DNA of 43,603 nucleotides, filler included, from Catajapyx aquilonaris (lineage: Eukaryota): NCBI GenBank assembly GCA_000934665.2. It is 2 parts of 2 records of this genome, joined end to end, with 100 filler letters (N's around TTAATTAATTAA, not from the genome) between each part and the next. Parts side by side here need not be neighbours in the genome. Positions count along the whole stretch, not along the records: positions 21,888 to 43,603 come from JYFJ02005995.1; 1 more part is not named here. One strand, 5' to 3'. Under the pieces are notes generated by a model that worked only from the letters and a program-made list of their open reading frames with translations, made no database searches and had not been told where the DNA came from. Below, piece after piece: positions 1-43,603 of the stretch (position 1 is the stretch's first letter; the number at the start of each line of letters is the position of its first letter). Both the position numbers and the translations under genes were made by a program.

Positions 1-761
1 GTAATGAGACGTGTGTGAAAACCTTTTATTGCAGTACTCACCAGCGTAAGTCTTTTCGCCCGTATGAATCCGCATATGTTCTCTAAAATCGTCCGCACCT
101 TTAAACTTTTTCTGGCAAACTTCACATGAAAACGGCCTTTCCGCCGTATGAATTTGCATGTGCCTTTTCAAACGACTGCCCTGGCTAAACGTTTTCTCGC
201 ACACTTGGCACGCAAACGGCATCATAATTTCTTTTTCACATGCTTGTACGTCACTGGTCTTCCCTACAGTGGAAGTCGTAGTGTGTCTCTGTGACACAAA
301 ATAAGACTCCTCTTGCAGCACCTGAAACAAGTTGATTATAACACTGCAGCGTGAAGAGTGTTTCATACTCTATTATCAAAGCGTAAAAGCAGGCACGTTT
401 AAACAGTGTGGTATTCCACCTGTATCCTCGTAAATATTAAATATTGCTCGGTACATACAGACTTCTCATTGGGATGCGCATTTACCTCAGGTGTATTTTC
501 ACAGGCATCTTCCAACGGATTGTCTTCATCGGTTAGCTCAGGAATGTTGGCCACCGACGCGACGCTTCCTCCTTCACTACCCTTGTAACATAACTGCTTT
601 CTTGTCCACCACCGGTGTCTAAGTACGACTCGTTCGCTTCATTCAAGGCTTGTGCCCACGCGTCCTCCCTGGTTACCCCTTGGCTCACCTCCTCTTCCTC
701 ACGGCCGTGCTCTTCCTCCTGCTTCACTTCCTGTTTAATAGTGAGCAACTGTGACACTGTC
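1..761 (-). pseudogene. C2H2 (Kruppel-type) zinc-finger gene, 3' end outside the window, apparently frameshifted
   Basis: Exon 321..1 (acceptor ttgtttcAG) translates VLQEES...FACQVCEKTFSQGSRLKRHMQIHTAERPFSCEVCQKKFKGADDFREHMRIHTGEKTYAGEYCNKRFSHTSHY. This is two canonical fingers with HTAERP/HTGEK linkers and a third finger with C>G. The upstream acidic exon 761..~486 (IKQEVKQEEE...) contains a 5-bp tandem duplication (cgacg x2, 555-564) that shifts frame. Removing it gives ...EEASVANIPELTDEDNPLEDACENTPE|GTAAAT, in phase with the finger exon. Confidence 0.75.
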
Positions 762-1399
762 CTGAAAACAAGACTAATTAGGTTAAGTCTCGGCGACTAT
801 AGTCTCGCAATGCTCGTTTCCACCTGCGCTACTCCTTTACCATTTATTTCCTCCTGCAGCTTCCAGTTCCAAGAGACTTGCCTCACCTCTGGGTAAAAAG
901 AAGGACAAGAAACTGACGCCTAACCTTCTTCCAGTTAGGCTTTCAAACCGAAAATGAATTTTCAGGAAAATTCCAGCCAGCAAAAGGCAGCATTTGTTCG
1001 GGTGCGTTCAGACATGTCACATGTGTCGAGTTAGAAGAGTTAGAACAAACCCAACCCGCTACTTTCAAAAATGCTCAAAGTCACCCAGTGATTTAATATT
1101 AGTTATTCACGATTTACATCACCGACCTTTATTGATGTTTTATGCCTAATTATCATCTGATTTACCGTAGCTTACATAGGTAATGTATGCTGGTGTTGAC
1201 AAGAGCACAAAGTTAATATTCACAATGCCAAGTTCAAGGTATGTTTACAAACAGTAAGGCACCAACTATATAAAATATAATCAATCAATTTTATTTACAA
1301 TTATGGATACATGCATACCCCCCCCCCCCTTTGACTCTCTGGATGATTTTGCAGCGCTATTAACAACAATGAATGTACATAAAATACCGTATACTCGGT

Positions 1400-3006
1400 T
1401 TAATACACAATAGGGTAGGATGCTTCAGTGGCGATTCCACATCGATTGTTTGCATTTCTGATTATTTTGATGTAACCTTCCTCTCCCCAGTCAGATCCCC
1501 ACGAATTCTTGGCCAGCCAGTAATCCACGCCATAATCGGATCCATAGCCAACCACCAGAAGACCGTGGTTCACCTGCTCGTTGTCGCACTCCTCATCATC
1601 GTATACGCCAGAACTGAAATTACCAATACTCATTAGAGTCATTACAGGACATACCAGTCGGATAATATGCACGAGAGTGAATCCGGGCCTCTGACTGTCC
1701 ATTTAGTACCATATTTCGCACATAGATGGCGCATCCTCCCTTTCAGCACACTACTACCACTTTTATGGGGAAGGTGGTACTACATGCACATACTGTAAGT
1801 GAGCGGAGGTGATGACTCGCTCCGGACAAACAGAGGCACAGACTCAAGCCAATAACAACTATATCCTTATGACGACGACGACGACGATGATGATGATGAA
1901 CATACCTGTAATACTGGAAGGAGCTTGCGGCGGCATTGACTACCACACTAATTGGCCCAATTGCAGCTGTCGATCTCTGCAACTCCGCTTCGCTACAAGT
2001 CTCGATTGCTGCATAACCAGAAATTGTGGCTACGATCTTTCTGGAATCGAATTGGCACTGATCCTCCGGCTGAATCAAAATGAGGTAAGATAAATCAGAA
2101 GCTAGACACAACAAAAAGTCAACCTATGAAAGGCAAAGATGTTACTCACATAATCATCATTAGGATAATCATCTGCAGACTCGAGTCCACCAGAGTTGAT
2201 TATGTAATCGTACGCATCCTTGGTTTGACCCCCATCGCAGCCATAATCACTTACAGTATTGCAATTCAGTACTTGCTGAGAACTACAAGCCGTACATTAA
2301 CATACAGTTTTGTTAGTATTGGTAATATATGAAATGTATACTTCACCTGAGAGTAACCAACTTTCCGCTGGACCTCGCATATTGTCCTTCAACTGCGCCA
2401 ACGACTGAGTAGATCCAAGCAGCGTCGCAATCACTTCCGTCCAGCACAGGTGTCACCAAATTTCTCTCGCGCCAGTCAATCTGTAAATTTATCCCATTTT
2501 AATAGCGGATATTCAAAATATTGTTGTCTGTACCGTACCGTTGGAGGAAGGTCCTGCCCGTCATCGCCAAACTTGACCGCTTCACCTCTGACTCTTGGTG
2601 TGTAGGAAGTCATGGTCTTACGGAACTCTTCATTCGTCTAAAAATTCACAGTAATTAATCTCGGTTTTCTCCATTACGTGTAATCAAACCACTCACCATG
2701 TCTGCAAATTTGTTTTCGCCCATCGTAAACTTGTGCTTTCCTTGGGCTGCTTCTTGGTTGTGTTTCTGTATGTGGGCCATGTTGTTCTCCCAAACAAGAC
2801 GCCTCACAGGCTCCTCTTGAAGGTTGTACTTCTTGTTGTAGGCTACCTGTAATATTAATCAGAGTTAGTGAAATGAACCAAACTTTTTCACTTACAAGTC
2901 TTACCTTGAAATGTTGCCATGCGCTGTCCAGTTCTGGATTACCAACAGAAATCCTACTGGCAGAGGCAACTGTGACCACAAACAGAGCTAGGATGAGGAA
3001 ACGCAT
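1400..3006 (-). CDS. Cathepsin-L-like (papain C1A) pseudo-protease A1, 331 aa, catalytic Cys>Ala
   Basis: Seven GT-AG exons: 3006-2905, 2846-2697, 2637-2539, 2480-2347, 2282-2150, 2069-1906, 1613-1400 (996 nt, open). Signal peptide MRFLILALFVVTVASA; ERFNIN-type motif EEPVRRLVWENNMAHIQKHN; GENKFADM. Mature region IDWRERNLVTPVLDGSDCDAAWIYS has Ala (2418-2420) at the CGSCW Cys position and Gly at the oxyanion Gln. [11 protein letters not shown] and KNSWG are retained. Confidence 0.95.
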
Positions 3007-3055
3007 TGTGATGTCTTGGGTTGAGGAACTGATGTGTTTTGGACTCACTGCTTGA

Positions 3056-3650
3056 TTTATATACTCTTTGGGGAGATGTCGATTTAAAGATGCCAAAGGA
3101 TAAAGGTGAAGAGGAGTATTTCCCGAAGTGGATGGGAATTTCCTACCATAGATTTGGAACAGATAAGTTTAGCATCACTTATTGTGTAATTTACACTGTT
3201 TGACCGAATAATGCGTAGTGAGCTGTCTATTGTGTGTGTCTCAAAAAGCTATTGTTTGCGTGAGATCCAACATGCTAGATAGTTCAATTCTGAGGCATGG
3301 GACGATTAACACACAAATTGATGCATAATAATATTAATATTATTGAAAAACTCAATTACGACTTTTGATCCTGTTGACATCAATCACGTAACGAACTGGA
3401 CGGATTTCATGTCTGGAAATTCCCTCGTTATCTCCATGTTTTGATTACACCACAATCAAGTTTTCAGATGATATTTATTAATTGCGGAATAAAATTTGTA
3501 ATGTGCCAGATTGCCCTTATCAAGCACTTCCATTGAGTGGTAGGAAAGACCCGGCTGTAAAGAGAAATGTTAACAACCAATAATCCAAGACCCCTTTATC
3601 ATCTCCATGTGACAGATTGAGAGATCGTCTAAGAAGGACGCGCTTATAAG
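3056..3650. promoter_or_regulatory. Divergent A1/B1 promoter with kappaB-like, GATA and TATA elements
   Basis: GGGAATTTCC at 3134-3143 and its reverse complement GGAAATTCCC at 3415-3424; variant TGGTAGGAAAGACCC at 3538-3552. GATA cores at 3098-3106, 3161-3167, 3428-3433, 3516-3521 and 3593-3600. TATATAAA on - at 3056-3063; CTTATAAG at 3643-3650. Confidence 0.7.
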
Positions 3651-3710
3651 TAATTGAAAGATCATAAGATATGTCAGTGACTCTATGTGCACCTAGTTAC
3701 AATCACCACA

Positions 3711-5404
<1,694 letters not shown>

Positions 5405-5911
5405 AAGTCAAACCGGTGAAAAAATGTGTGTATTTTATATATCTGTATAAAATTGTAATAAAATATTTTCTTGGTCAGTATGTGAGCTATTATGATTTCA
5501 TCCTGGAATGGCAGGCTTCTCAAACTTTGGAATGACTCCAAGAAGTCGATGATGCTACGATGAGTTTTACTAAAATAATTACCTTGCTCTGGCTGTTACA
5601 TCACCTGGAGTGCGACGTCACCTCAAGGTTAAAGAATAATTCTAACAGTAACTTATTCAGGATTTGGATATTCTGGATAATTATACTAATTAGTAATTAC
5701 AAAAGATTATGTAAAACATCAATACTGTAGTAGGAAATGTACATTATAATAAATAAAATATGATTCGTTGTATATAAAAATCCAGAAGATGCATTATTAT
5801 TTTATAATCTAGGTGCTTCATGACCTTGCTCACGTGGATGCCATGTGCGCACATTATACATGAATCCGATATCCAAACCGGTTCACACATAAAACTACAT
5901 CCTCCTCCGAG

Positions 5912-6760
5912 ATGCTGCTGTCCTTCTGCTTCCTGTCCTTTGCTCTTTGCCCCGTGTCCGCCCGCCCAGGGGCCAAATCATGCCAGATGATGGGCTTCGG
6001 CTCCGACTACAGGCTGGACACAAAGTCCGGCCAGTGTCACGAGACCTGGACAGTCGGACCATGCGGATACCTTCCTGACGTCATGACGTACGTACCAATT
6101 GACGACGTGTACGGAGAGTGCTCTTGCGCAGTGCCCAACATGAGAGTCTGGCCGGCGGACAACATGTGCTACTTTTTGAACTCACAGGTAAGGAGCTGTC
6201 CACACATTACAGAGTATCAAGAACTGGGAAATACTGAGAGTTAATCAGTATGTTTAAACAGACTATTAGTAGCAGGTCCGGGACCCTGTGGTCCTAATGA
6301 AAAATATATAGACTTTATAAAGAGGCGCATATTATCGCTATTTTCGATTCAGGGTCCGTGCAAACTAGGCTACAGATTCAAGTTCAACTCGAGTGGAGAT
6401 CCTCCTGAGTGTGAAGTGGACGCCAATTGTTACGACAGGATGATTCAGACTGGCAGTAGCAGCTGGGTGTCTAAAGATGGCGAGTGCTACGAGGAAGGGA
6501 AGAGAGGCCACCCATGCCCGGACCACGAGATACTGATGCTCCAAGGGTACGAGGAGACGAGGTGCGTGGATCTGCGGGTCGTCACAATCTTCGGGGTTCA
6601 ACCTGACACAGGGGGAGCAAGACAATGCAACAAGGCCCAACAGACAGTACCAAGCTACCTCGGAGGATGTCTTCCAGCTGTCCAGGTTCTTGATGGGACG
6701 GAATGTCCGGAAGGATTCGTGCACCACCCAGCCTACGATGAAGTGTGTGTCCAGGAATAG
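5912..6760 (+). CDS. Secreted cysteine-rich protein D1, 227 aa, DUF4789-like
   Basis: Exons 5912-6187 and 6353-6760, phase-0 GT-AG intron, open. Hydrophobic N-terminus MLLSFCFLSFALCPVSA. Three internal repeats of C(Y/H)x5G(H)PC type: GQCHETWTVGPC, WPADNMCYFLNSQGPC, KDGECYEEGKRGHPC. These resemble the arthropod DUF4789 motif (recalled, not searched). AATAAA near 6813. Confidence 0.85.
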
Positions 6761-7525
6761 AGTAACTTATATGTCACTAGTGAAGCAAATTTGTTGACCA
6801 CATGTTTATGCAAATAAAGTTATATAAATGTACATAAAGGAACGTTTACCATGACCACTTCAGAAGCACAAAATAAATAATATTATAGAACGAGTACCTG
6901 AAAAATTACGCGCACAACACACTTGAACTCAAAATATTACATTATTGGATATGGATCTTGCTGAATGTCCACTTGTCCCAAGGTCACGATGTTGATTGCC
7001 TGCATAGCGGCCAGCACTCACGTATTAATCCGTGCGGAAAGTCCAGCATTTTCACAAACCATCTTGACAATAACAACTCGTTATCGCATCGAAATCTTTA
7101 AAACACACTCATGCTACCCTTATCAGTTGAATTGTTATCTCTCCAATCGATGAAGTCAATGTGATTGCAGGACAACGTCTCGTGCTTATATAATGAAGAT
7201 AACAAGACAATGATCCTACTGAATAAACTAATACATTACTAGTATGCTTGCAACATTGCATTAAATACATTACGAATAACAATGAATTTTTAAATGTTAA
7301 ATTGAGATGCTAAATTCAGTCAAACCTCACAGACGAAGATGAAACCCAATTTAACGCAGAATATTATTTTTTAATTTAGTCCGCGATTTAGTCCATAAGT
7401 GATAGATCGCCGACTGTTTTCTTCTTCAAATCACTTTAATTCACTCAAATTGACAAAATGCGCCGATTCATTGTGACATTTACGATAAGTGAAGTTCAGT
7501 TGAGCCTATATTTCGCAATTCTGAT

Positions 7526-7663
7526 CTTATCACAAGTACTAGCAGGCTGAACAGTGGTAGGAAATCCCCAGTCGCGAAACGACACTTTCTCTCTCCATTA
7601 CCAACAGATTCCTTTATCCATTGATACTGATATACCGTATATCTCAAGTTGAAAGTATATAAA
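7526..7663 (+). promoter_or_regulatory. C1 promoter: GATA - kappaB-like - GATA - TATA
   Basis: CTTATC 7526-7531; TGGTAGGAAATCCCC 7555-7569 (reverse complement GGGGATTTCC); CCTTTATC 7611-7618; TATATAAA 7656-7663, 48 nt before the ATG. Confidence 0.7.
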
Positions 7664-7710
7664 CGGAGTTGCAGAAAACAAACGTGTCCATACCTCTCAG
7701 CAGCACAACG

Positions 7711-9171
7711 ATGAAAGTCATTCTTTTCATAACATTCGTAGCTTGTGCATATGCCAGCAGACTTTCTGCAGGCAACAACCATCAACTGGATGCGGCATGG
7801 AGGCAATTCAAGGTAAAGTTTTGAACATAACAATGGGTGGCAAATTTAAATAATGCATTGTTGTTTCAGATAAAGTACAACAAGGCGTACGATCAGTCGC
7901 ATGAGACTTCAAGACGTCTGGTTTGGGAGTCAAACATCGGCTTCATTCAGAAGCACAATCAAGAAGCTGCTCAAGGAAAACACACGTTCACACTGGCCGA
8001 GAATCAGTTCGCAGATATGGTCAGTTTCGCAACATTGTGGTGAAAATCAGCAAACTGACACTAATGTTATTTTCAGACCAATGATGAATTTCACCAGGCC
8101 ATGAATAAGTACAGACCCAGCAAGCCTACTAAGAATCACAATGAAAAAGTCACTTCCTTCTCAGATGAATACCTGCCTAACCTGGTAAATCGCTAAACTT
8201 CTATGCAATGGTTTTAATTTTTAAATACAATTTTTGACAACTTCGCAGATTGATTGGAGGGCCAAAAACATGGTGACTAGTGTGAAAAACCAGCAAAATT
8301 GCGAGGCCTCCTGGATATTCGCAGCAATTGGGGCCGTAGAAGGGGCGCATTCAAGAGCAACTGGAGAGCTGGTGTCTCTCAGGTGACATATCACAAATAA
8401 TGAAATATATTATTAGTAATGAACAATTACTCAAATCATAATAATAGGGAAAATTGAAATCTGCCTATTTTAACTGCAAATAATATTTGTTTTCCATTGC
8501 ATGGATTTCTGATTATTACAGCCCTCAGCAATTAATGGATTGCTTCAATATTGGAGCTTACCCCAAACCCTGCGAAGGCGGATCAACTGACGATGCGTTT
8601 AAGTACATCCTTAAAGCAGGAGGTGTCGTATCTCAAAAACATTACAATTATACCGCAGTTGTAAGTCATCTTTGGTGTAATGTAACATAAAGCTGAAGAC
8701 CACCATGAACTAATTTCTGCCACTTTTCAGCCGTCATACATATGCAGATTTGACAGCAGATATGTCAGAGCCTCTATCAGCGGATACGTTAAGGTGGAAT
8801 CTGGATCTGAAAAAGAGTTGCAACGCGCAACCGCTTCTATCGGACCAGTAGCAGTGGCCATAGACGCCAGCCAGAAATCCTTCCAATTTTATTCGTAAGT
8901 GTAAGCGCATCTTGTATCTTAATTACGCAGCTAACAATGTGGGATTGACTCTTTCAGCGGCGGCCTGTACCTAGATACCAAATGTTCATCTACGAATCTT
9001 AACCACGCAGCTTTAGTTGTCGGCTACGGAACATCCTCTGAACTGGACTATTGGCTGGTCAAGAACTCATGGGGACCAGGGTGGGGAGAGGGTGGGTACA
9101 TAAGGATGGTCAGAAATCACGACAATAACTGCGGAATAGCCACCAATGCTACGTATCCCATTGTTTATTAA
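7711..9171 (+). CDS. Cathepsin-L-like protein C1, 336 aa, catalytic Cys>Ser with oxyanion Gln retained
   Basis: Exons 7711-7812, 7870-8019, 8077-8184, 8249-8382, 8522-8660, 8731-8894, 8958-9171 (1011 nt, open). [26 protein letters not shown] has Ser (TCC, 8309-8311). [16 protein letters not shown] and KNSWG present. AATAAA at 9198-9203. Confidence 0.95.
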
Positions 9172-10529
9172 GTGAGGGAATTTGCTGTACTCATGTAAAT
9201 AAAACATGTAAAGTAAACAAAATTTCAGTTTTAACAATACCTGGTGATCTTAAACTTCTGTATTGCACTCCGTTCTCCTGTTTCCTAATAAAATCGAGTG
9301 AAAATATTTAGCAATTAGACTTATATGTACAACAAAAGTAATGAATGGTTATGAGAAAACTATTGCACACCAAAGATTTTGAAAAACACAACTTGCGCCG
9401 ACAAATCTCCGCGTTGAAATCAATTAGACATCAATGAAAAATCTTTTCTATACTTAAATATTGATTGCATGCAGTATGTTACGGTTCAATAATTTTTAGG
9501 TTCCAATCTATAGGTCTAAAAGAACTATATAGTTCTTTACAAAACAATGAGTATGCAATATGAAAAGAAGTGCCACTGGCAAGGGGTTAACCACTCGACT
9601 GTAATATGCTGTAATATGTACATTGGAGTACCAAATTCAAGGAGTACCTGGGAGTACCTAAGGAGTAGACCTATCCGAGAGCATCAATGAACGCCTTAGG
9701 GCTCTTTAAGTTAATATTATTTTAGCTATATACGTGTATATGCATTAGCCTACTGAATATCAGTAGGCCTACTGTATATTATAGGCTACAAGTTGCATAT
9801 TGTGGTGGTGAAAAGCTGCCGGCCAGAGGGAGCGCACTACCCACTTTGACCAAACTGACGGAAAAAACCTTGGAAAAAACCAATGAGCTTCTGACTCTCC
9901 ATCCAGCCAAGGGCATCCATTTTAAAACTAATTATTTCCAGGTAACTTAAAGGGGTACTAGGAAAATCCTCGCTCCGCTCGCCTTTTCCTAGGGCGCAGG
10001 CCTAGAAAACCGCTCGCTGTTTTCTCGGCCTGCGGCCTGCGGTGTAGGCCAATGATGTTCTTAATGATGCTCACCCAACAATTATCCTCATCATACTCCC
10101 CTCCCCCCTGCCTCCCCCCTCCTTATACTAAACCTTTGACGGCTAATACATCATAATATTACGATGTCCTGATGGTTTGTGAATTAGCCCTCGAGGATGT
10201 GCATAGAGAAGGCGAACTTGTCAGTGCCAAACCCGGTTCAATATGCTCCTGCCATCTCTTGGATTGTGACTCAAGTACCATGGCAACTCCAGATCCCCCC
10301 CCCCCCCNCCAAGTTGAGTCGTATATGCCAAGGTCACGCTGCCCCCACGTGATCGTTTATGTAAACATGTTCCCTCAGTACAGAGTGCCCCGTAGAGTAT
10401 GGACTCTTGGACTTGGGAGTTTTTTTTTTAAAGTTACCCCCTGATAAGGCGGAGCCTTTTTAGGGGGTGGAATACCACCATTTAACTCGATTTTTCTATA
10501 TTTCAACTTCAATATCCGGTCCAAGGAGT

Positions 10530-18521: not shown

Positions 18522-19553
18522 ATGCTGCTGTCCTGCTTCCTGTCCCTTGCTCTTTGCCCCGTGTCCGCCCGCCCAGGGGCCAAATCTGGCCAGATGATGG
18601 GCTTCGGCTCCGACTACAGGCTGGACACATAGTGCGGCCAGTGTCACGAGACATGAGTCAGTCGGACCATCGGGCTACCTCCCAGAAGTCATGACGTACC
18701 TGACCGTTGACGACGTGTACGGAGAGTGCTCTTGCGCAGTGCCCAGCATGAGAGTCTGTCCCACGGACAATAGCAGGGGCCTATATGTGCTACTTTTTGA
18801 ACTCACAGTCAGTTAAGCAGCTGTCCACACATAAAAGAGAGACATTCACAAAGGACCCAAAACTGGGCAAAACTGATAATTAATCAGTAGGGCGTATGTT
18901 TACTTGTCCGGAGTGAGTCATCAGTCATCACCACAACTCAGTCCTACCCACAAACTGTCCACGTAGTATCACTGTCCCTGAATCGATGGCACGTCCTCCT
19001 TCTCAAGACACTCCTGGCACGGTGAGAGAGATTGTGTTACTACGTGGACCTTGATGAGTTCAGGCACGTTCAGGTGATGACTCATCCCGGCCAAACGTAC
19101 AACAACAATTGGTAGTAGTAGGTTCGGGACCCTGTGGCCCTAATGAAAAATCTATCGACCTTAAAGAGGCGCATGTTCTCGCCATTTTCGATTCAGGGTC
19201 CGTGCAAACTAGGCTACAGATTCACGTTCAACTCTGGTTCAGCCGGGCAACAGCTATGGGTGTCTAAAGATGGCGAGTGCTACGAGGAAGGGAAGAGAGG
19301 CCACCCATGGCCTGACCACAAGATACTGATGCTCCAAGGGTACGAGGAGACGAGGTGCGTGGATCTGCGGGTCGTCTCGGTGCACGAGGCTCAACCTGAC
19401 ACAGGGGGAGCAAGGCAATGCAACAAGGCTCAACAGACAGTACCAAACTACCTCGTAGGATGTCTTCCAGCTGTCCAGGTTCTTGATGGGACGGAGTGTC
19501 CGGAAGGATTCGTCCATGCACCATGCAGCCTACGATGGAGTGTGTGTCCAAGG
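18522..19553 (+). pseudogene. Pseudogene D2 of the secreted Cys-rich gene
   Basis: In-frame stops TAG 18630-18632 and TGA 18654-18656, small indels, a disrupted exon-1 donor, an internal deletion in exon 2 (from 19197) and a frameshift near the C-terminus, all relative to D1. Confidence 0.93.
18901..19099. mobile_element. MITE in the D2 intron
   Basis: Imperfect terminal inverted repeats tacttgtccggagtgagtcatca / tgatgactcatcccggccaaacgta, inner inverted pair gtccacgtagta / tactacgtggac, TA at both ends. Absent from the D1 intron. Confidence 0.8.
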
Positions 19554-20479
19554 GTAAATTACCACGTGACACTGCTAAAATAAATCAAATTAAACACCCT
19601 AGTTGACCACAAGAGTTGTTGCAGGTTTTTGTCAATAAATCTGTAAATGAAATACCTGTAACTGTAGGTATACCACCTTGGTCGAAATCTTTAACAACAC
19701 ATACTTAAGATGACGAAAAAATACAATAAAGCGTATAACACACATGTACTCAAAATATTGCAAACGCGTGCGTCAGACTTTGATATAATAAGTTATATCT
19801 GATTGGATATGGATCTTGGTGAATGTCCACTTGTCCTCAGATCACGATGTTGATTAAAACTGTAGCAGCCAGCACTCACGTATGAATCCGTGCGGAAAGT
19901 CCAGCTTTACAGCAATCTTGACAATAACAACATACTCATGATCGAATTGAATCTTTAAAACACACTCATGCTGCTCATATCAATTGAAATGTCATCTCTC
20001 AAAGTACCAAGTCAATAAAGTCAATGTGATTGTATTATGCATCTTCTAGTCACTTGCTTGTAATATACAGTAGCTAAGATAACAAGTAGCCTATTGAAAT
20101 ACCTAACGTACATTATTCTTGCAACACTGCGGTTAAATATAACTTATACATTACGAATAATAAATTAAATTTTAAAAATGTTAAATTGAGATGCAAAATC
20201 AGTCAAACATTACAGCTGCAGATAAAATACAAATGCTCAATATTATTTTTAATTAGTCCATAAGTGATACCTTGGTGATACTTCGTCGACTATTTTCTTC
20301 AAATCACTTTAATTCACTCAAATAGACAAAATTCGCCGAATCTCTCTGACATTTACAGTGCGAAACGACACTTTCTCTCTCCTTTACCAAGTGACTCCTT
20401 TATCCCTTGCTTGATACTGAAATATCTCAAGTTGAAAGCATATAAACAGAGTTGCAGAAAACCTCTCAGCACCACAACG

Positions 20480-21787
20480 ATGAAAGTCATTATTCTCCTA
20501 ACAATTGCGTATGCCAGCAGAATTTCTGCAGGCAACAACCATCAACTAGATGCGGCATGGAAGCAATTTAAGGTAGAGTATTGACCCTAACAATGGGTGG
20601 CCAATTTAAATGTTGCATTGTTGTTTTTAGATAATATACAAAAAGACTTACGATCAGTCTGAGGAGACTTCAAGACGTCTGGTTTGGGGGTCAAACATCG
20701 GCTTCATTCAGAATCACAATCAAGAAGCTGCTCAAGGAAAACACACGTTCACACTGGCCGAGAATCAGTTCGCAGATATGGTCAGTTTCGCAACATTGTG
20801 GTGAAAACCAGCAACTGACACTAATGTTATTTTCAGACCAATGCTGAATTTCACCAGGCCATGAACAAGTACAGGCCCAGCAAGCCTACCAAGTATCACA
20901 ATGAAAAAGTCAATTCCTTCTCGGATGAATACCTGCCTAACCTGGTAAATCGCTAAACTTCTATGCAATGGTTTTAATTTTTAAATACAATTTTTGACAA
21001 CTTCGCAGATTGATTGGAGGGCCAAAAACATGGTGACTAGTGTGAAAAACCAGCAAAATTGCGAGGCCTCCTGGATATTCGCAGCAATTGGGGCCGTAGA
21101 AGGGGCGCATTCAAGAGCAACTGGAGAGCTGGTGTCTCTCAGGTGACATATCACAAACAATTAAATATATTATTAAGTAATGAACAATTAATCAAATCAT
21201 AATAATAGGGAAAATTGAAATCTGCCTATTTTAATTGCCAATAATATATAAGTTTTCCATTGCATGGATTTCTGATTATTACAGCCCTCAGCAATTAATG
21301 GATTGCTTCAATATTGGAGGTTATCCCGAACCCTGCGAAGGCGGATCAACTGACGATGCGTATAAGTACATCCTTAAAGCAGGAGGTGTCGTATCTCAAA
21401 AACATTACAATTATACCGCAGTTGTAAGTCATCTTTGGTATAATGTAACATAAAGCTGAAGACCACCATGAACTAATTTCTGCCACTTTTCAGCCGTCAT
21501 ACATATGCAGATTTGACAGCAGATATGTCAGAGCCTCTATCAGCGGATATGTTAAGGCGGAATCTGGATCTGAAAAAGAGTTGCAACGCGCAACAGCTTC
21601 TATCGGACCAGTAGCAGTGGCCATAGATGCCAGCCAGAAATCCTTCCAATTTTATTCGTAAGTGTAAGCGCATCTTGTATCTTAATAGCGCAGCTAACAA
21701 TGGGATTGACTCTTTCAGCGGTGGCCTGTAACCAGATACCCAATGCTCATCTACGAATCTTAACCACGCAGCTTTAGTTGTCGTCTA
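20480..21787 (+). pseudogene. Cathepsin-L-like C2 (Cys>Ser), premature stop in exon 7, truncated by the gap
   Basis: Exons 20480-20572, 20631-20780, 20837-20944, 21009-21142, 21285-21423, 21494-21657, 21719-gap. TAC>TAA at 21729-21731 lies before the His codon; VVGY>VVVY; signal peptide 3 aa shorter than in C1. Confidence 0.8.
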
Positions 21788-21887
21788 NNNNNNNNNNNNN
21801 NNNNNNNNNNNNNNNNNNNNNNNNNNNNNNNTTAATTAATTAANNNNNNNNNNNNNNNNNNNNNNNNNNNNNNNNNNNNNNNNNNNN
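21788..21887. other. Assembly gap with artificial six-frame stop linker
   Basis: 44 N + TTAATTAATTAA (21832-21843) + 44 N = exactly 100 bp. Confidence 0.97.
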
Positions 21888-30992: not shown

Positions 30993-31291
30993 TGAGGTCT
31001 AGTTGGAAAAAAAGTTTTGCGATGCTACAGTTTCGACGCCATGCAACGGACAGGGTAAAGATGATCATGGGCAGATACGTTGTTCTTGCAGCTTATGCGC
31101 GGGCAACCGTTGGACAAGACCGAGTGGTGAGCTGAGCATTCCCACCCACATTCTGCCAGGAAAAGTCATGCCAGACAGACAGTGTTGGTCACATGGACTA
31201 AGAAAGAAGTTAGGACACTTGAGAACACTGTCTGTAATTGCCATGGCTGGTAGTTCGGGTGTCTGGTTGTCCTTTACACTTGTGAGCTTAT

Positions 31292-31605
31292 ATAAGCGAA
31301 GCAGTGGTAGCGGAGGGGATATGGTATCCGACTGCTAATAATCGGGAGGTCCTGGGTTCGAATCCCGGGGGCCGCCGAACCTGACCGTGGTTTTCTGTGG
31401 TTTCCCATGGTCTCACCAGGAAAATTCCGGGGTCGTGTCTGTAATTATAGGCCACAGCCGCTTCCTTCCGTCCCTATCCCATCCCCATATAAGAGAAGTA
31501 AAAACGAAAGTAAGAGTTCCAGATATTTAAAAAATGGTGGTATCCCACCCCCCTAAGAGGGCCCATGGCTCTAGCACGGGGTACAAATTATTATAATTAT
31601 AATTA
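31292..31605 (+). mobile_element. tRNA-derived SINE with 18-bp target-site duplication
   Basis: A-box-like TAGCGGAGGGG, B box GGTTCGAATCC 31355-31365, AT-rich tail. TSD ttacacttgtgagcttat at 31274-31291 and 31606-31623. Same family as 41275-41648. Confidence 0.9.
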
Positions 31606-36538: not shown

Positions 36539-38627
36539 GTGTTCATGCAAGATATGGAAACCCAAGGATGTTGGTGTAAGCTTTTCCTGGCAGTGTTACA
36601 TCCCACAGGTGCAACATCATACCAACACGAAAACAGGCGACTTGTAGCCTAACTGGGAGCAAAGATGTTCAAAGTACTGTTAACTAATATCTGGCTTCAG
36701 ACTCAGTCCTTTGAAAATATTCACATTCTTTCTGCACAATGCTGCACACCTAGAGCAAAGTTTGGCAAGCTTGACACTTCCTGCTCTGCTCTAGGAACAC
36801 AATAATAAATGCTACCGGTACCACAATTCACAAGTTTTTGGGGGTTTTGGGGGCTGTTACAAGGAGGGGTTACCCACTGTTCCAGTACATGTCGATTCCA
36901 GTAGCATACATGGTCCCAGTCCCGTCAGGTGTACACTTTCATTGCTAGTGAGTGACCCTTCGAATCTTACTTGTCTGAGCATGTGCTTAGGCCTTCACAT
37001 TCCATACCGTTTCATACCTACGCTGCCACTGGTACTGATCCTTCCGGAGCAGCCTTCGGGCGTTGAGATGCTCGCAGATACCCTCCTCTCTGGTACCCGG
37101 AACTGAGGATCCGCTCAAGTCCAAGCACTCGTAGAAAATATCGTGATGACCTTGTGATGACCACACTTAATGAAAGGACAAGTGAAGACTGTCCCCATCG
37201 TGTGGGCATGTGGCATGTGCAATTGTGCATCGTGGGCAATGGGCATGTGCCTAGTGCCGGCAACACCCAAAGAAGCAGAGCTGCTTTCTTAACAATGCAC
37301 CACATTAGCTATAATCAATTTATTTATATATTAAATATTAGACACGGCTGCACAGTCCCAATGTGCCTAGATTTTATAAATTAGGCATAAATCTCAGATT
37401 GGTTTAAATTTCAATAATTTGGAGAATCATAACTAAAAAAAGGAGTTGAATGATATAACTGCTAAAGCTGCTCCTAATAACTCCCAAGCTCACGAGACGA
37501 GTATTATATTAGGAGCGGTAGTAGTGCGCTCTAGTGGGATAAAGCCAGATTTTGGTCGTTTTGCCGCGAAATAGGAGCGAACTATCAAAATGACTTGCAA
37601 AAGGCTCAACTCTCCGTGAGAAAGTGCTGACGCAATTTATTTGCTTCAGTTTACTCTAATAAGCTGGTACGTCCCCCCCCCCCCACACAAAAAAAACAGT
37701 AATAACAAGTCACTGCTTCCTTCGTACATGAGAACAAGACTGTGGCATCCTATTTGTATTAGGTGAAAGATGTTCAGAAATTGCCCCCCTTTGGTCTTAT
37801 TGACAATAAGTTGTCCCAAACAAAAGTGCCTTCATGCTTATTGCAAAGATGATGCCAGGTAATAATTCATTCAATGTTAGACCAAACTGACACATTTTTC
37901 ACATTTGAAAAGCATATTTTCTGAAAGAGTATACTGTATAGGTCTGTAGTAGTTTCTAGAATATCGCGGTTTCATTTATAACATGAACTCAATATCCCTT
38001 TCCTTGCACTCCAGTTGCCACACTTAATTTTATATCAACAGTCATATTCATTTCGAATCAACTCCATCTGAGGTTGTACAAATATCACAAGTGAAGATCC
38101 TGGAAAATAAAGAATTGCACATAGAGGGGCTAAAATTACAGTGCACCAAGCAAAATAAAGCTGAAGCAGCAAAAAAATACAGTATTTCAGGTAAATAAGC
38201 TATGCCAGAGGTATATCATGAATTATTTGATTCTCCCAATGAAAATACTGATAGTAGTGATAGATATGCTGATTCATGCCAATTGATAATGATTGCATTG
38301 CATTATGACTCAAAATATGACCCTTGTTGCTGCCAGTTACTATGATTTAGCAGTTGGACTGGCCGGACTGTCTGTAAATATATATTGTCTGTGTGGAAAA
38401 CGACACCTACATAATACTATAGGCCTACACTGTATATGTCATGTTCGTTCATATTGATTGAAAGGATGCCTTCAGCTCAGGAAGTAAATCTAATAAGTTA
38501 CCCGCGCGTTGTAGGCATAGCATATTCTTCATACACGTCAATTTTAATAGTAGGCTATACTGTAGCCTACTTGGAAACTGGAAATAACACAATAATGACA
38601 TTTCAAATTCCCACATATCCCCAGAAG

Positions 38628-41600
38628 ATGGCCACTCGCAGCAGTAACATGACCACCATTGTACAGCCTGAGGACGATGAAGTGCAAATAATTGCGGAAA
38701 TAAGGTGAGACAGAGCACTGGGAGCAAGACTGGGAGTCGGTTGGGACTTGGGAGTGATCAAAGCAGGCCCGTAATTAGACGGATAGGCTGATGAGAGTTG
38801 AGAAGGGCACTCGAAAATAATTAAAGTCTGACAAAAATGTAGGCCTAGCATTTTATTTCGATATACACTATGTACGCTTCAAGGATAGTAGACAACCACA
38901 ATGCATTTTTAATATGAAACTGTGACTAAAATATGGGAGGGGGGACCTGTGCGAAGAAGAGTGATCACGTGGTTTCGTTCAGTGCCCCCTATCCCCCTGT
39001 GGCTCTGTGGGATCTCAGTGATCCTCAAATAATAAATTATTGTATTTGTTGATTAGGGCCTACTATAAGATATGGGTGACTGAATGTCCTAAAATAGGCT
39101 CTCTCCACTCTCCACAGTAGCTTTTCATAAATAATTAATTCAAGTTCAAAAAAGAATTTTACAAAGTTGCCTGCCTCGAGTGAAAAATTATTTTATATGC
39201 TATTCCAATATTTACTCTTCCTCATATTTTATAGGCCTACTCCACTACTTCTTACTAACTCGGGCTACGCCTGACCTGCATGTACTGTACTGATAGAATG
39301 TTCCATTTTTAGGCTAGAGAAATTGGCCGTCATCGAGGAGGCGATTAGGAGAGAGGAGGAGATGATGGAAGATCTGGCGGCCGACCATCAGATGACAACG
39401 TACCTCGAAGAACCTATCACGTGAGGCATAGCGTTGGTAGTGGTCAAAACACGTTACTGATTCAGGGCCGTAATTCACTGGGCAACACACAAAAAGGCTT
39501 TGAAACGAAAATAGCTAATCTTTACTAATTTCGAGGTGCTGAACAGTTGAACACTAAAATGACAATAAAATTATTTTGTCGATTGGCTTAGGAGAGACAG
39601 AGATGATCATGACGTATGGCGATACATATGACGTATATAGGAACCTCGCGAATTTCTATGCGAAGTTCATGTTCAAATAGTGTTTTTCGGGTTCTTTATT
39701 AACGTATAGGAAGAAAACACCTTTCCAGAAAAAAAAACTTGATCTTAAGCGTTTTTGAAATACGGCTGTCAAAAGGTCAAAAATTGATCTATCATGCAAT
39801 TCTCTGAGGAAGCTATATACAGTATTCATCGCTATATACAGTATTATAACATTAATGATATCGGAGAGGTTTTTGGTACATAGAAGTTTCTTGGGGTGGG
39901 GAATACAATGGTAAAGCTGGAAGGTGATGTGGGGGGCGGGACGTCAAAAATGAGTTTAAAAAACAGTATTTTCTAGTGAATGAAAACAAAATGAGTTGTA
40001 GAAGTGACTTAGACACCTAAGGTGGGCAATTTTTATTAACTCACATGTAAATAGGAATTGCCAGTTGATTATTCCCACATTAGAGCGATTGTCTTTACAT
40101 TGACCTATATAGGCTACTCATTTTTTCCCCTCTACACCCTTGCTCTATACACATTGTCAGGGATGAAGCCATTACTGTGCAGATCTCATTCTAGTTAGTT
40201 TTATTTTTAGGAGTTGTCGTCCATTACGTCTTGTTCAGCTTGTGCTTACGAAATGGCCTCCCCTCCGAAATTATTCTGCCTACGTCCCTGTACAGGACAT
40301 CATAAAGGGCGAAAATGTCTTAATATGCCCTGTCTTGATAGGCCCTTCTACCCTTGCTGCACATGTTTATATTTTCGGATGTGAACCCTGTGGTACCATA
40401 TAAAATCTATATATCCCTCCCCCCCCCCNGGGGGGGGGGTCCGGACTTTCAATGGCCCAGGAAAGGTAAATACTGGACCTTGTCAGAAACTTAGTTGAAT
40501 TCCCCAGGCCCATACTCTTCCGCATATTTTATATGACTACTGTACTACTACTCTTACTAGCGCGGGCTACGCCTGACCTGGCTGTACTGATAGAAGGTTC
40601 CATTTTTAGAGCAGAGGAGGACCCCCTAACCGCGGAGTCCATGGAGCTGACGATCGGGCAGATTGATTGGAGGGATACTGCCAATTTGACCTGCCTGATG
40701 GTCGAGAGTGTCATCCCCTCTGAGCCGGCAGCGGACCTTCATAGCAACCAGGAAGTGGACATCATAGCCGAGTACACGTGAGGCATAGCGTTGGTCATGG
40801 CGTTAGCAGTTATTAGCTCTTGGTAGTGGTCAAAGCACGTTACTGATTCAGGGCCGAATTTCCCTGCATGGGCAGCACACAAAAAGGCTTTGAAACGAAG
40901 ATAGCTAATCTTTACTAATTTCGAAGTGCTGAACACGAAAATGAGCAACAATAAAATTTGTCGATTGACTCTAGTTAGGAGAGACAGAGATGATCATGAC
41001 GTATCGTCATGTAGGGAACCTCGCGAATTTCTAAGCGAAGTTCATGTTCAAATCGTGTTTTGCGGGTTCTTTATCTGCTAGGAAGAAAACACCTTTCCAG
41101 AAAAACCCTTCATCTTAAGAGTTTTTGAAGTACGGGTGTCCAAAGGTCAAAAATTGATCTATTATGCAATTTCTCTGAGGAAGCTATACTGTATACATCT
41201 CTATAACTTATTTTTTAAATAATTGGGTGATAGGCGATACCCTTACGGGTTTTCTGCCAGACCTTTATTGAAACCTTTATTTTTATTATTATTATTATTG
41301 TACAGTAGTTGGTGCAGGGACAGGGTAGGGAAGGAGGGAGGGACACTGGTGCATGTGCAATGTCTCAAGTTGGGGGTCGTGTGCAGTCCCTCAGGGGGTC
41401 CGTTCGCCATAGATGGCCCCCTAGATGCGGGTCAGAAACCCCCGACTGACCCGCATCTCCTCCAGGACAGGGAGAGGAGGGAAGCGGCTGTGGCCTATAT
41501 TATGGTACGATCCCGGAAATTATTCCTGGAGCGACCTTGGAAAACCACAGAAAACCAACCAAGGTCAGGATCGCCGGCCTCCGGGGTTCGAACCCAGGAC

Positions 41601-43304
41601 CTCCCGATTAGCAGTCGGATACCAAATCCCCTCCGCTACCACTGCTTCGGTTATACATCTCTATATACGTATACAGGATTATAAAATGAATGATATCGGC
41701 GAGGTTTTTGGTACATATAAGTTTCTTGGGGAACACAATGCAATGGTAAAGCTGGAAGAGGATGGGGGAGCGTCAAAAATGAGTGTATAAAACTACTTTC
41801 TAGTGAATGAAAGCAAAATGTGTTTTAGACTTGAGTGCCTTAGACACCTGAGATGGGCGATTTTTATTAACTCACATGTATATAGTAATTGCTGATTATT
41901 CCCACATTAGTGCGATAGTCTTTACATAGACCCATAGGCATAGACCTATTCATTTTTTCCCTCTACACATTGTCAGGGATGAAGCCATTACTGTGCAGAT
42001 CTTATTTAAGTTAGTTTTATTTTTAGGAGTTTTAAAAAAATGTAACTAGCAGATCGGCTTGTGGTCTCCTTTTCCTGACTGTGTTATTATCATTTTAAAG
42101 TTTTCTTATAGCTGGGCTTGTTTTGTTCTATGTGCTTTGGTGGCATTCATAAAGACAACTGATGCATGTACAGTACAGTACTGTCTTGGTAATTCCTATA
42201 TTTACATAAGAGTTAATAATATTCACTACTTTGGGTGTCCAAGTTACTGAATAAAAACTCATCTTGCTTTCAGGCGCTTCAAAATACCATTTAACTCGTT
42301 TTTAGCCCTTTAGTCTACTGGTGTAGACCCTATTACTACGTACAACTCTATGGCATAAGAAACTATTGCCGAGTTCTCAGAAATCATAGCAAATTTTGCA
42401 TTTTCGTTGTCATATTCATGTTCAGCACCTGGAATCATTAAGAATTAATTGGCTACTTTCATCTCAGATCCATGAATTTAATCATTTGTTGCCCAGTGTT
42501 ATTAGACGGATATAGGCTGGGAGGAACAGACGGAAAAACCAATCAAGTCTGACAAAAATGTTGCATTATACAGTATTTCGATATTTGTACGCTTCACATT
42601 TTCAATGTACAAATGTGACTAAGGTAAGTTGATTTGACCCAAAGCAACTAAAGCTATGTCTTTTACTCCGGTGGGGTTTTGATAGTGTGAGGAAACGGGA
42701 GAGCCCTGGGAAAACCCACACAAACACGGAGAGAACCCATCCAAACTCTTTCCACATAAGCATATACTATGCCCTACCCGGGGATCGAACTCGGGAACTC
42801 AGAGGTGGAAGGCTGTGGCGCTATTAAACCACTACACCACCCCTAATAATGTGACTATATATGGGAGGGGGGAACTGCGCGAAGAAGAGTGATCACTTGG
42901 TTTCGTTCAGTTCCCCCGCTCTCGCTGGGGCTCTGTGGGATCTCATCTCACTGTCAGTCATCCTCAGTTGTCTTTGTTGATTACTATAAGAGAGGGGGAA
43001 CTGAAATTCCTAAAGTAGCTTCACAAGATTTCCAAAAATGACCCTACTAATTCAAGTTCAAAGGAGCAAGAATTCGCCTCCAGTGAAAAATATTATTTCA
43101 TTTGTTATTACAATATATTCTACTCTCCTCCATATTTTATATTGTAAATGGGGGGGAGGGGGGGATTACAGCTCGGGCTATAAGTCCGACCTGCGTCCTC
43201 CTCTCCATCTACGGGCCTGTACTGACGGAATGTTCCAGTTTCAGACCGGCTACACCGGGGCCATGTGATGATGAAGATGTGTCGTGCATTGGGAGTCTCA
43301 TCAG
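38628..43304 (+). CDS. Putative multi-exon gene encoding an acidic protein with several SIM-like motifs; continues beyond the window
   Basis: Exons 38628-38704 (MATRSSNMTTIVQPEDDEVQIIAEI), 39313-39420 (LEKLAVIEEAIRREEEMMEDLAADHQMTTYLEEPI), 40610-40777 (AEEDPLTAESMELTIGQIDWRDTANLTCLMVESVIPSEPAADLHSNQEVDIIAEY), 43245-43304 (PATPGPCDDEDVSCIGSLI). All donors are GTGAG, all junctions are phase 2, and internal exon lengths are 108/168/60. Acceptors are TACTGAY...ttccaKtttYAG. The spliced frame is open. Confidence 0.7.
39476..42498. mobile_element. Transib-like non-autonomous TIR element, left part duplicated with the host exon
   Basis: Termini cactgggcaac (39476) / gttgcccagtg (42488-42498) with extended imperfect inverted subterminal arms. 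5-bp flanks taatt / ttatt. The empty site cccgtaattagacggat is visible at ~38768-38784. The left ~750 bp is present twice (39476-40210 and ~40862-42030). Confidence 0.6.
41275..41648 (-). mobile_element. tRNA-derived SINE, same family as 31292-31605
   Basis: On -: gaagcagtggtagcggagggga...ggttcgaacccc...ggttttctgtggttttcc...ggccacagccgcttcc, with an (AAT)n tail. Absent from the paralogous intron 2. Confidence 0.9.
42622..42847 (-). mobile_element. tRNA-derived SINE with V-domain-like core and 10-bp TSD
   Basis: On -: A box GGTGTAGTGG, B box GAGTTCGATCCCC (42780-42792), core gagtttggatgggttctctccgtgtttgtgtgggttttcccagggctctcccgtttcctcacac. TSD aatgtgacta at 42612-42621 and 42848-42857. Confidence 0.85.
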
Positions 43305-43603
43305 GTGAGGCTTAGCGTTGGTAGGGGTCAAAGCAGGTCAGTAATTATTAGATGGATAGACTGGGAGGGACAGAGGGAAAATGAAGTCGACCAACATTTT
43401 ATTTCGATATTTGCACGCTTCAAGGCTGTACCACAATGCATTTTCAATGTAAAAAATGTGACTAAAATAGAGGAGGGGAGAACTGTGCGAAGAAGAGTGA
43501 TCATTTGATTTCGTACAGTTCCCCAGCTCCCGCTGTGCTGTGGGATATCAGTCATCCTCAAATTGTCTTTGTTGATTACTAAGAGAGGGGGGTGGGGGGG
43601 GGG

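Follow-up and report, generated by a model that had tools for sequence, protein, structure and literature searches.

The last 5 kb of a 43,603-nt window of Catajapyx aquilonaris DNA (the whole stretch that was analysed, along which all positions are counted) has a GC content of about 40% and is of animal type. It contains a locus, 38628–43603, in which four short candidate exons on the + strand alternate with copies of one intron family. We tentatively favour, at a little under even confidence, the reading that this locus may be the 5′ end of a lineage-specific protein-coding gene, in which an old array of symmetric mini-exons is separated by younger introns that were duplicated or homogenised. 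The locus combines consensus splice signals, a single intron phase, a continuous open frame, a repeated intron, exons that do not resemble one another, and a short peptide motif common to exons 1 and 3. From these features we infer transcription, splicing, the history of the array, and any binding by the encoded peptide.

Candidate exons and their repeated introns

Candidate exon 1 (38628–38704, 77 nt) begins with an ATG in the context AAGATGG and ends in the split codon AG|G, with DEVQIIAE encoded directly before the donor. Candidate exon 2 (39313–39420, 108 nt) encodes an acidic peptide with a predicted helix. Candidate exon 3 (40610–40777, 168 nt) encodes a peptide predicted as a low-confidence coil, and its 3′ end encodes QEVDIIAE. 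Candidate exon 4 (43245–43304, 60 nt) encodes DDEDVSCIG. The translation start of exon 1 is not fixed, because its frame is open upstream as far as 38415 and contains earlier ATGs. A sequence-only reading of this DNA had proposed the four exons and the junctions 38704/39313, 39420/40610, and 40777/43245. All of these are present with canonical splice signals, and the end of exon 4, absent from that reading, lies at 43304. The peptides that it expected from in-frame splicing (EDDEVQIIAE, LAVIEE, QEVDIIAE, and DDEDVSCIG) all fall within a joined frame of 137 codons without a stop. Its remark that the exons were not recoverable from the open reading frame (ORF) track holds for exons 2 and 4 and fails for exons 1 and 3, which lie in stop-to-stop ORFs of 97 and 103 aa.

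The donors of exons 1–4 are, in order, AG|GTGAGA, AC|GTGAGG, AC|GTGAGG, and AG|GTGAGG. The acceptors are, in order, TTCCATTTTTAG, TTCCATTTTTAG, and TTCCAGTTTCAG, and each has a TACTGAY about 20 nt upstream, followed by a short pyrimidine run and YAG. The four introns are all in phase 2, with the codon split after its second base, and the lengths of the three internal exons are divisible by 3. On the + strand, the in-phase frame is the sole open frame of exons 2 and 3. When exons 2–4 were shuffled, in-frame openness was kept in 100 of 20,000 trials. The chance of three symmetric exon lengths is 1 in 27, and the joint chance of these lengths with the open frame is approximately 2 in 10,000, which is well beyond coincidence. 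GC content is 0.47–0.57 in the exons against 0.40–0.45 in the introns. The splice signals, phase, open frame, and GC contrast make it reasonable to infer a spliced gene on the + strand, and the model of four candidate exons is plausible.

The introns form a repeated framework. The donor-side pattern GTGAGGCNTAGCGTTGGT was matched three times in the whole window (0.03 expected) and the acceptor-side pattern also three times (0.00 expected), in every case at the candidate exons. BLAST of the region against the whole window showed that the intron family is confined to the locus, where its members are 70–84% alike overall. The outside matches consisted only of AT-rich microsatellites and one short interspersed element (SINE)-like piece (41465–41655 against 31291–31479, 84%). 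The repeated framework described in the sequence-only reading is thus borne out, with three copies of each end at these exons only within the window.

Intron 1 (38705–39312, 608 nt, phase 2) begins with a diverged head and ends in a tail that contains TACTGAT and TTTTTAG; between the two, its interior includes a conserved hairpin-like segment. Intron 2 (39421–40609, 1189 nt as assembled) consists of a head, an inserted repeat of about 0.8 kb that is common to intron 3 (39434–40215), an unmatched part (40216–40512), and a tail (40513–40609). Intron 3 (40778–43244, 2467 nt) consists of a head, an inserted repeat with inverted arms (about 40820–42498) that contains the SINE-like piece 41465–41655, the family interior from about 42499, a second insert (about 42650–42845), and a tail; its insert boundaries were set by eye. 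The start of intron 4 (43305–43603) belongs to the same family and continues past the window end, and the further intron copy expected there was found, since this piece is 76% identical to intron 1 and 79% identical to intron 3. Introns 1 and 3 are 71% identical, the first 0.8 kb of intron 2 is 81–82% identical to intron 3, and the intron 1 tail matches the intron 2 tail at 84% by BLAST. The 0.8-kb insert lies about 50 nt into introns 2 and 3 and is missing from introns 1 and 4. Nested inserts thus make the intron interiors mosaic.

A hairpin-like segment of about 50 nt occurs in the interiors of introns 1, 3, and 4 (about 38937–38986, 42868–42917, and about 43475–43524). Its 25-nt arms show 76% complementarity, its core GCGAAGAAGAGTGATCA does not vary among the three copies, and it had no Rfam match. 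Pairing between intron head and tail was considered as a splicing aid and rejected, as the duplex energies were no better than those of shuffled sequences.

Exon dissimilarity and the proposed history of the array

The block formed by the intron 1 tail, exon 2, and the intron 2 head was compared with the block formed by the intron 2 tail, exon 3, and the intron 3 head. The two are nearly identical up to the AG, and the near-identity resumes at the GT. The flanks share 86/95 bases upstream and 349/389 downstream (about 90%). Between them, exons 2 and 3 are identical at 46 of 108 positions (43%) in a MAFFT alignment, a value equalled or bettered by 127 of 200 codon-shuffled controls. Against shuffles, all six pairwise exon DNA alignments gave z values between −0.1 and 2.1. 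Because exons that cannot be aligned lie between flanks about 90% alike, we rejected as the full explanation a recent and simple tandem duplication of an exon with its flanks. What had been called duplicated exons is better worded as repeated introns around mostly unrelated exons.

One short likeness between exons was found. DEVQIIAE of exon 1 and QEVDIIAE of exon 3 are identical at 6/8 residues, and both finish one codon ahead of the split codon. A 6/8 match anywhere was reached in 67/5000 shuffles, and in 0/5000 when the match was anchored at the exon ends. In the last 12 codons of the two exons, 7, 9, and 4 bases are identical at codon positions 1, 2, and 3, which indicates that the peptide is kept while synonymous sites are not. 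We suggest that the repeat is probably a conserved short linear motif. Exon 4 carries the looser form DDEDVSCIG, and the end of exon 2 is without the motif. The claim of tandemly duplicated phase-2 exons is therefore borne out in part: the shared phase, the symmetric exons, the alike flanks, and the exon 1/exon 3 motif agree with it, and the shuffle-level exon pairs do not. Growth of the array by exon duplication is weakly supported, because the demonstrable repeat is the intron.

Intron 2 is itself a mosaic. Its head groups with intron 3, with which it has the 0.8-kb insert in common, and its tail groups with intron 1 (31/38 identical positions, against 26/38 for intron 3). Consequently, the flanks most closely related to those of exon 2 are, on both sides, those of exon 3. 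These relations fit exchange between introns better than copying of whole introns.

In the history that we propose, a strongly acidic N-terminus would be encoded by a start exon and, after it, no fewer than three small exons, all symmetric (phase 2-2). The exon–intron units would probably come from an old tandem duplication, which would account for the single shared phase and for the motif that exons 1 and 3 carry equally far from the donor and exon 4 carries in a looser form. The introns would be much younger copies than the exons, having been re-duplicated or homogenised. The agent may be gene conversion or unequal exchange among adjacent introns, in tracts that end where exon homology ends. 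In an older exon array with long homologous introns, exchange of this kind would yield a mosaic of introns, homology that breaks off sharply at the exon edges, one phase throughout, and a common motif of old date. The repeated acidic-hydrophobic peptide may be a short linear docking motif, the copy number of which could be changed by frame-neutral exon skipping.

Intron homogenisation with divergent exons is known from major histocompatibility complex (MHC) genes, and accelerated exon evolution from venom genes. As here, the introns of those genes are more alike than the exons they flank. The difference is that those are paralogous genes under balancing or positive selection, whereas the units here lie within one gene. 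A literature search for gene conversion leaving introns more conserved than exons returned no match.

Several points weigh against the proposed history. Exons 2 and 4 have no convincing share in the motif, and the gene model is a putative one drawn from genomic signals. Conversion limited to introns has to be invoked to explain alike flanks beside unalignable exons, and this conversion is itself conjectural. The exon 3 peptide had no scoring match among longer proteins and only two matches among 1.84 billion representatives, both repeat artefacts: a bacterial calcium-binding-repeat protein (7 chance matches) and a junk repeat, which were rejected as relatives. Pfam returned no family for the peptides of exons 1, 2, and 3. 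The assembly is also imperfect inside intron 2, where a polyC-N-polyG tract occurs at 40418–40440 (N at 40429). Sequence, and perhaps entire units, may be missing, because this tract has the look of an assembly join and the G run closing the window (43590–43603) that of a join or an end. A single N at 10308 lies within a plain C run, unlike the polyC-N-polyG of intron 2.

The ESM Atlas held no neighbour of the exon 3 peptide. A cathepsin exon from the same window, used as a control, gave 56 matches, none closer than 50–63% identity, which indicates that neither the species nor its near kin is represented among the proteins searched. The blanks among protein relatives are weak evidence for this reason.

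One competitor is the spread of introner-like introns. Introners are transposon-derived introns known in an arthropod group, the copepods, and the available part of Gozashti et al. (2022, PMC9860276) reports them from 175 of 3325 genomes. On this account, which we consider unlikely, an intron-generating element with its own GT, branch site, and AG inserted four or five times, each time in the same orientation, into what had been a continuous short acidic ORF, and the exons are unrelated pieces of one old exon. In its favour, and as in introners described by that source, the intron similarity begins and ends exactly at GT and AG while the intervening exons are at shuffle level. The terminal exon bases ahead of the donors are also alike (ATAAG, ATCAC, TACAC, and ATCAG), as a target preference would give. 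Against it, the four introns share a single phase, for which the chance is about 1 in 27, and neither intron end is copied elsewhere in the other 38 kb of the window. Terminal inverted repeats and/or target-site duplications are found in many, not all, introner families. Here, the head–tail duplex energies of introns 1–3 gave z values of 0.2 to 1.1 against shuffles (intron 4 is incomplete), which shows no terminal inverted repeat; no head–tail inverted pair was found in the introns, and inspection by eye showed no consistent target-site duplication or repeated flanking bases. The head and tail of intron 2 have different nearest relatives, and the exon 1/exon 3 motif lies at a fixed distance from the donor. 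The locus thus differs from introners, as far as the available part of PMC9860276 describes them, in being one locus within the window, without terminal inverted repeats or target-site duplications, in one phase, and with mosaic head and tail relations. The same part of that source cautions that introners are mimicked where exons evolve rapidly in paralogous regions. Metagenome scans with two intron motifs gave zero matches each. A wider form of this account would also be improbable. In it, an arthropod gene would recently have gained introns: local duplication of an intron, or an element of the introner type, would have placed four or five copies of a single intron in a short acidic ORF, all with the same orientation and phase. 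Near-identical sister introns would then separate unrelated exon pieces, and the exon array would be a by-product; alternatively, concerted evolution restricted to the introns would act within one gene, with the mini-exons kept different.

It is also doubtful that the locus is no gene at all and instead a local tandem repeat, rich in transposable elements and with splice-like signals, whose frame is open by coincidence, its variable segments being rich in GA and poor in stops. The locus had no homologue or domain match in the searches made, the region is rich in repeats and SINE-like inserts, and the assembly is of modest quality, with N runs at 10308, 21788–21887, and 40429. Such a coincidence is opposed by the joint chance of about 2 in 10,000 given above and by the precision with which consensus AG and GTGAG, together with the branch-site-like TACTGAY, bound the variable segments. 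The exon GC content above that of the flanks and the exon 1/exon 3 motif, in which the differences fall mainly at third codon positions, also argue for coding sequence.

The array reading that we favour has a further parallel in tandem exon duplication arrays. In the available part of PMC9013439, such arrays resemble the locus in having small tandem exons of one phase, frame-symmetric, with alike splice-site flanks, and skippable in principle. Their exons are recognisably homologous, whereas here the likeness lies in the introns, and the exon pairs are at shuffle level save for a single 8-residue motif.

The acidic peptide and candidate SUMO-interacting motifs

The 137 encoded residues include 33 acidic and 6 basic ones. 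Single-sequence AlphaFold2 predicted a helix at residues 2–31 of the exon 2 peptide (mean predicted local distance difference test score, pLDDT, 79) and a low-confidence coil for the exon 3 peptide (pLDDT 61); the exon 1 and exon 4 peptides were too short to fold. The models suggest that the acidic N-terminus is probably partly helical and otherwise disordered.

The sequence-only reading had taken the product for a poly-SUMO reader, resembling SUMO-targeted ubiquitin ligases and having a valency of SUMO-interacting motifs (SIMs) grown by exon duplication and tuned by exon skipping. We consider this very unlikely. The available part of PMC12751080 defines a SIM loosely: three or more residues of a four-residue core are V/L/I/C, a stretch of acidic or phosphorylatable residues lies next to the core, and the motif binds as an extended, added strand. 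DEVQIIAE, QEVDIIAE, and DDEDVSCIG satisfy this loose definition as given there. The SIM-like cores are VQII, LAVI, and VDII, and, with Cys counted, also VSCI, LTCL, and CLMV. The cores of exons 1 and 4 have 4 acidic or Ser residues among the 5 preceding residues, the exon 3 peptide is a predicted low-confidence coil, and the internal exons are symmetric, all of which agree with such a reader.

The core counts lie within the expectation from composition, and a separate count gave a similar outcome. Three V/I/L cores were found against 1.94 expected, and 1424/5000 shuffles reached three. With Cys allowed, there were five against 2.44 (171/5000 shuffles), and cores with a flank of at least three D/E/S numbered two against 0.90 (1096/5000 shuffles). 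At least three D/E/S within 5 residues occur at two of the six cores, those of exons 1 and 4, and the cores of exons 2 and 3 have two each. SIM-like cores are thus no commoner than composition predicts. LAVIEE lies within the predicted helix of the exon 2 peptide, whereas SIMs bind as extended strands according to the same part of PMC12751080. The candidate SIMs lie at residues 19, 30, 111, and 130 of 137 and are 11 to 80 residues apart; they are not closely spaced as in RNF4, which has four within a short stretch in the available description (PMC12751080). No RING or other effector is in view, because the sequence stops in intron 4.

The likeness to the clustered SIMs of RNF4 and Arkadia, as the available part of PMC12751080 presents them, is that a V/I-rich four-residue core comes after an acidic stretch and that this combination recurs in an N-terminal region which is probably disordered. 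The peptide differs from them in that the cores are not enriched and are widely spaced, one candidate is helical by prediction, no RING is in view, and there is no sequence relationship. The claim of a poly-SIM protein therefore comes down to a loose pattern, and SUMO binding by the exon 1/exon 3 motif would be one guess among several, and a rather remote one.

Neighbouring sequence and meaning of the locus

The nested repeat of introns 2 and 3 occupies 40820–42498, with a partial copy at 39434–40215. Its inverted arms pair, for example, 40920–40944 with 42410–42434 and 41794–41826 with 42254–42286, and it probably represents a non-autonomous DNA transposon. SINE-like inserts whose ends resemble tRNA lie at 41465–41655 and 31291–31479 (opposite strand, 84% alike), and another at about 42650–42845. 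An ARAGORN scan of 38000–43603 found no tRNA. Rfam gave three sub-threshold miRNA-like matches, none at the candidate exons. The palindromic segment 36226–36353 matched the MIR7526 model on both strands with 32 and 28 bits, against a gathering threshold of 110, and is probably a hairpin resembling a miniature inverted-repeat transposable element.

Elsewhere in the window, papain-family cathepsin exons were annotated (Peptidase_C1, E = 2.3e-28; I29 propeptide, E = 1.9e-15), as were two weak matches to DUF4789 below threshold. A coding exon with C2H2 zinc fingers (1–369, − strand; zf-H2C2_2, E = 2.8e-15) runs off the window start. The part 1–21100 contains a segmentally duplicated gene pair, in which cathepsin exons and a Cys-rich protein (weak DUF4789) recur at a spacing of about 12.76 kb. 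For example, 8217–8297 is identical to 20977–21057, and the ORF at 6245–6760 resembles that at 19122–19583. A 17-nt exact match of exon 3 to 8245–8261 and 21005–21021 does not extend and was rejected as a chance IDWR coincidence with the cathepsin exon.

Transcription of the locus would make it an orphan gene with an N-terminus assembled from frame-neutral mini-exons, and a small natural example of how splicing could vary repeat valency in a disordered protein. Intron identity of about 90% beside unalignable exons is the signature used for calling introners, whereas the phase and the mosaic relations here point instead to exchange between neighbouring introns. Given a genome and RNA-seq data for the species, the locus would serve as a clean test case of intron gain against intron homogenisation.

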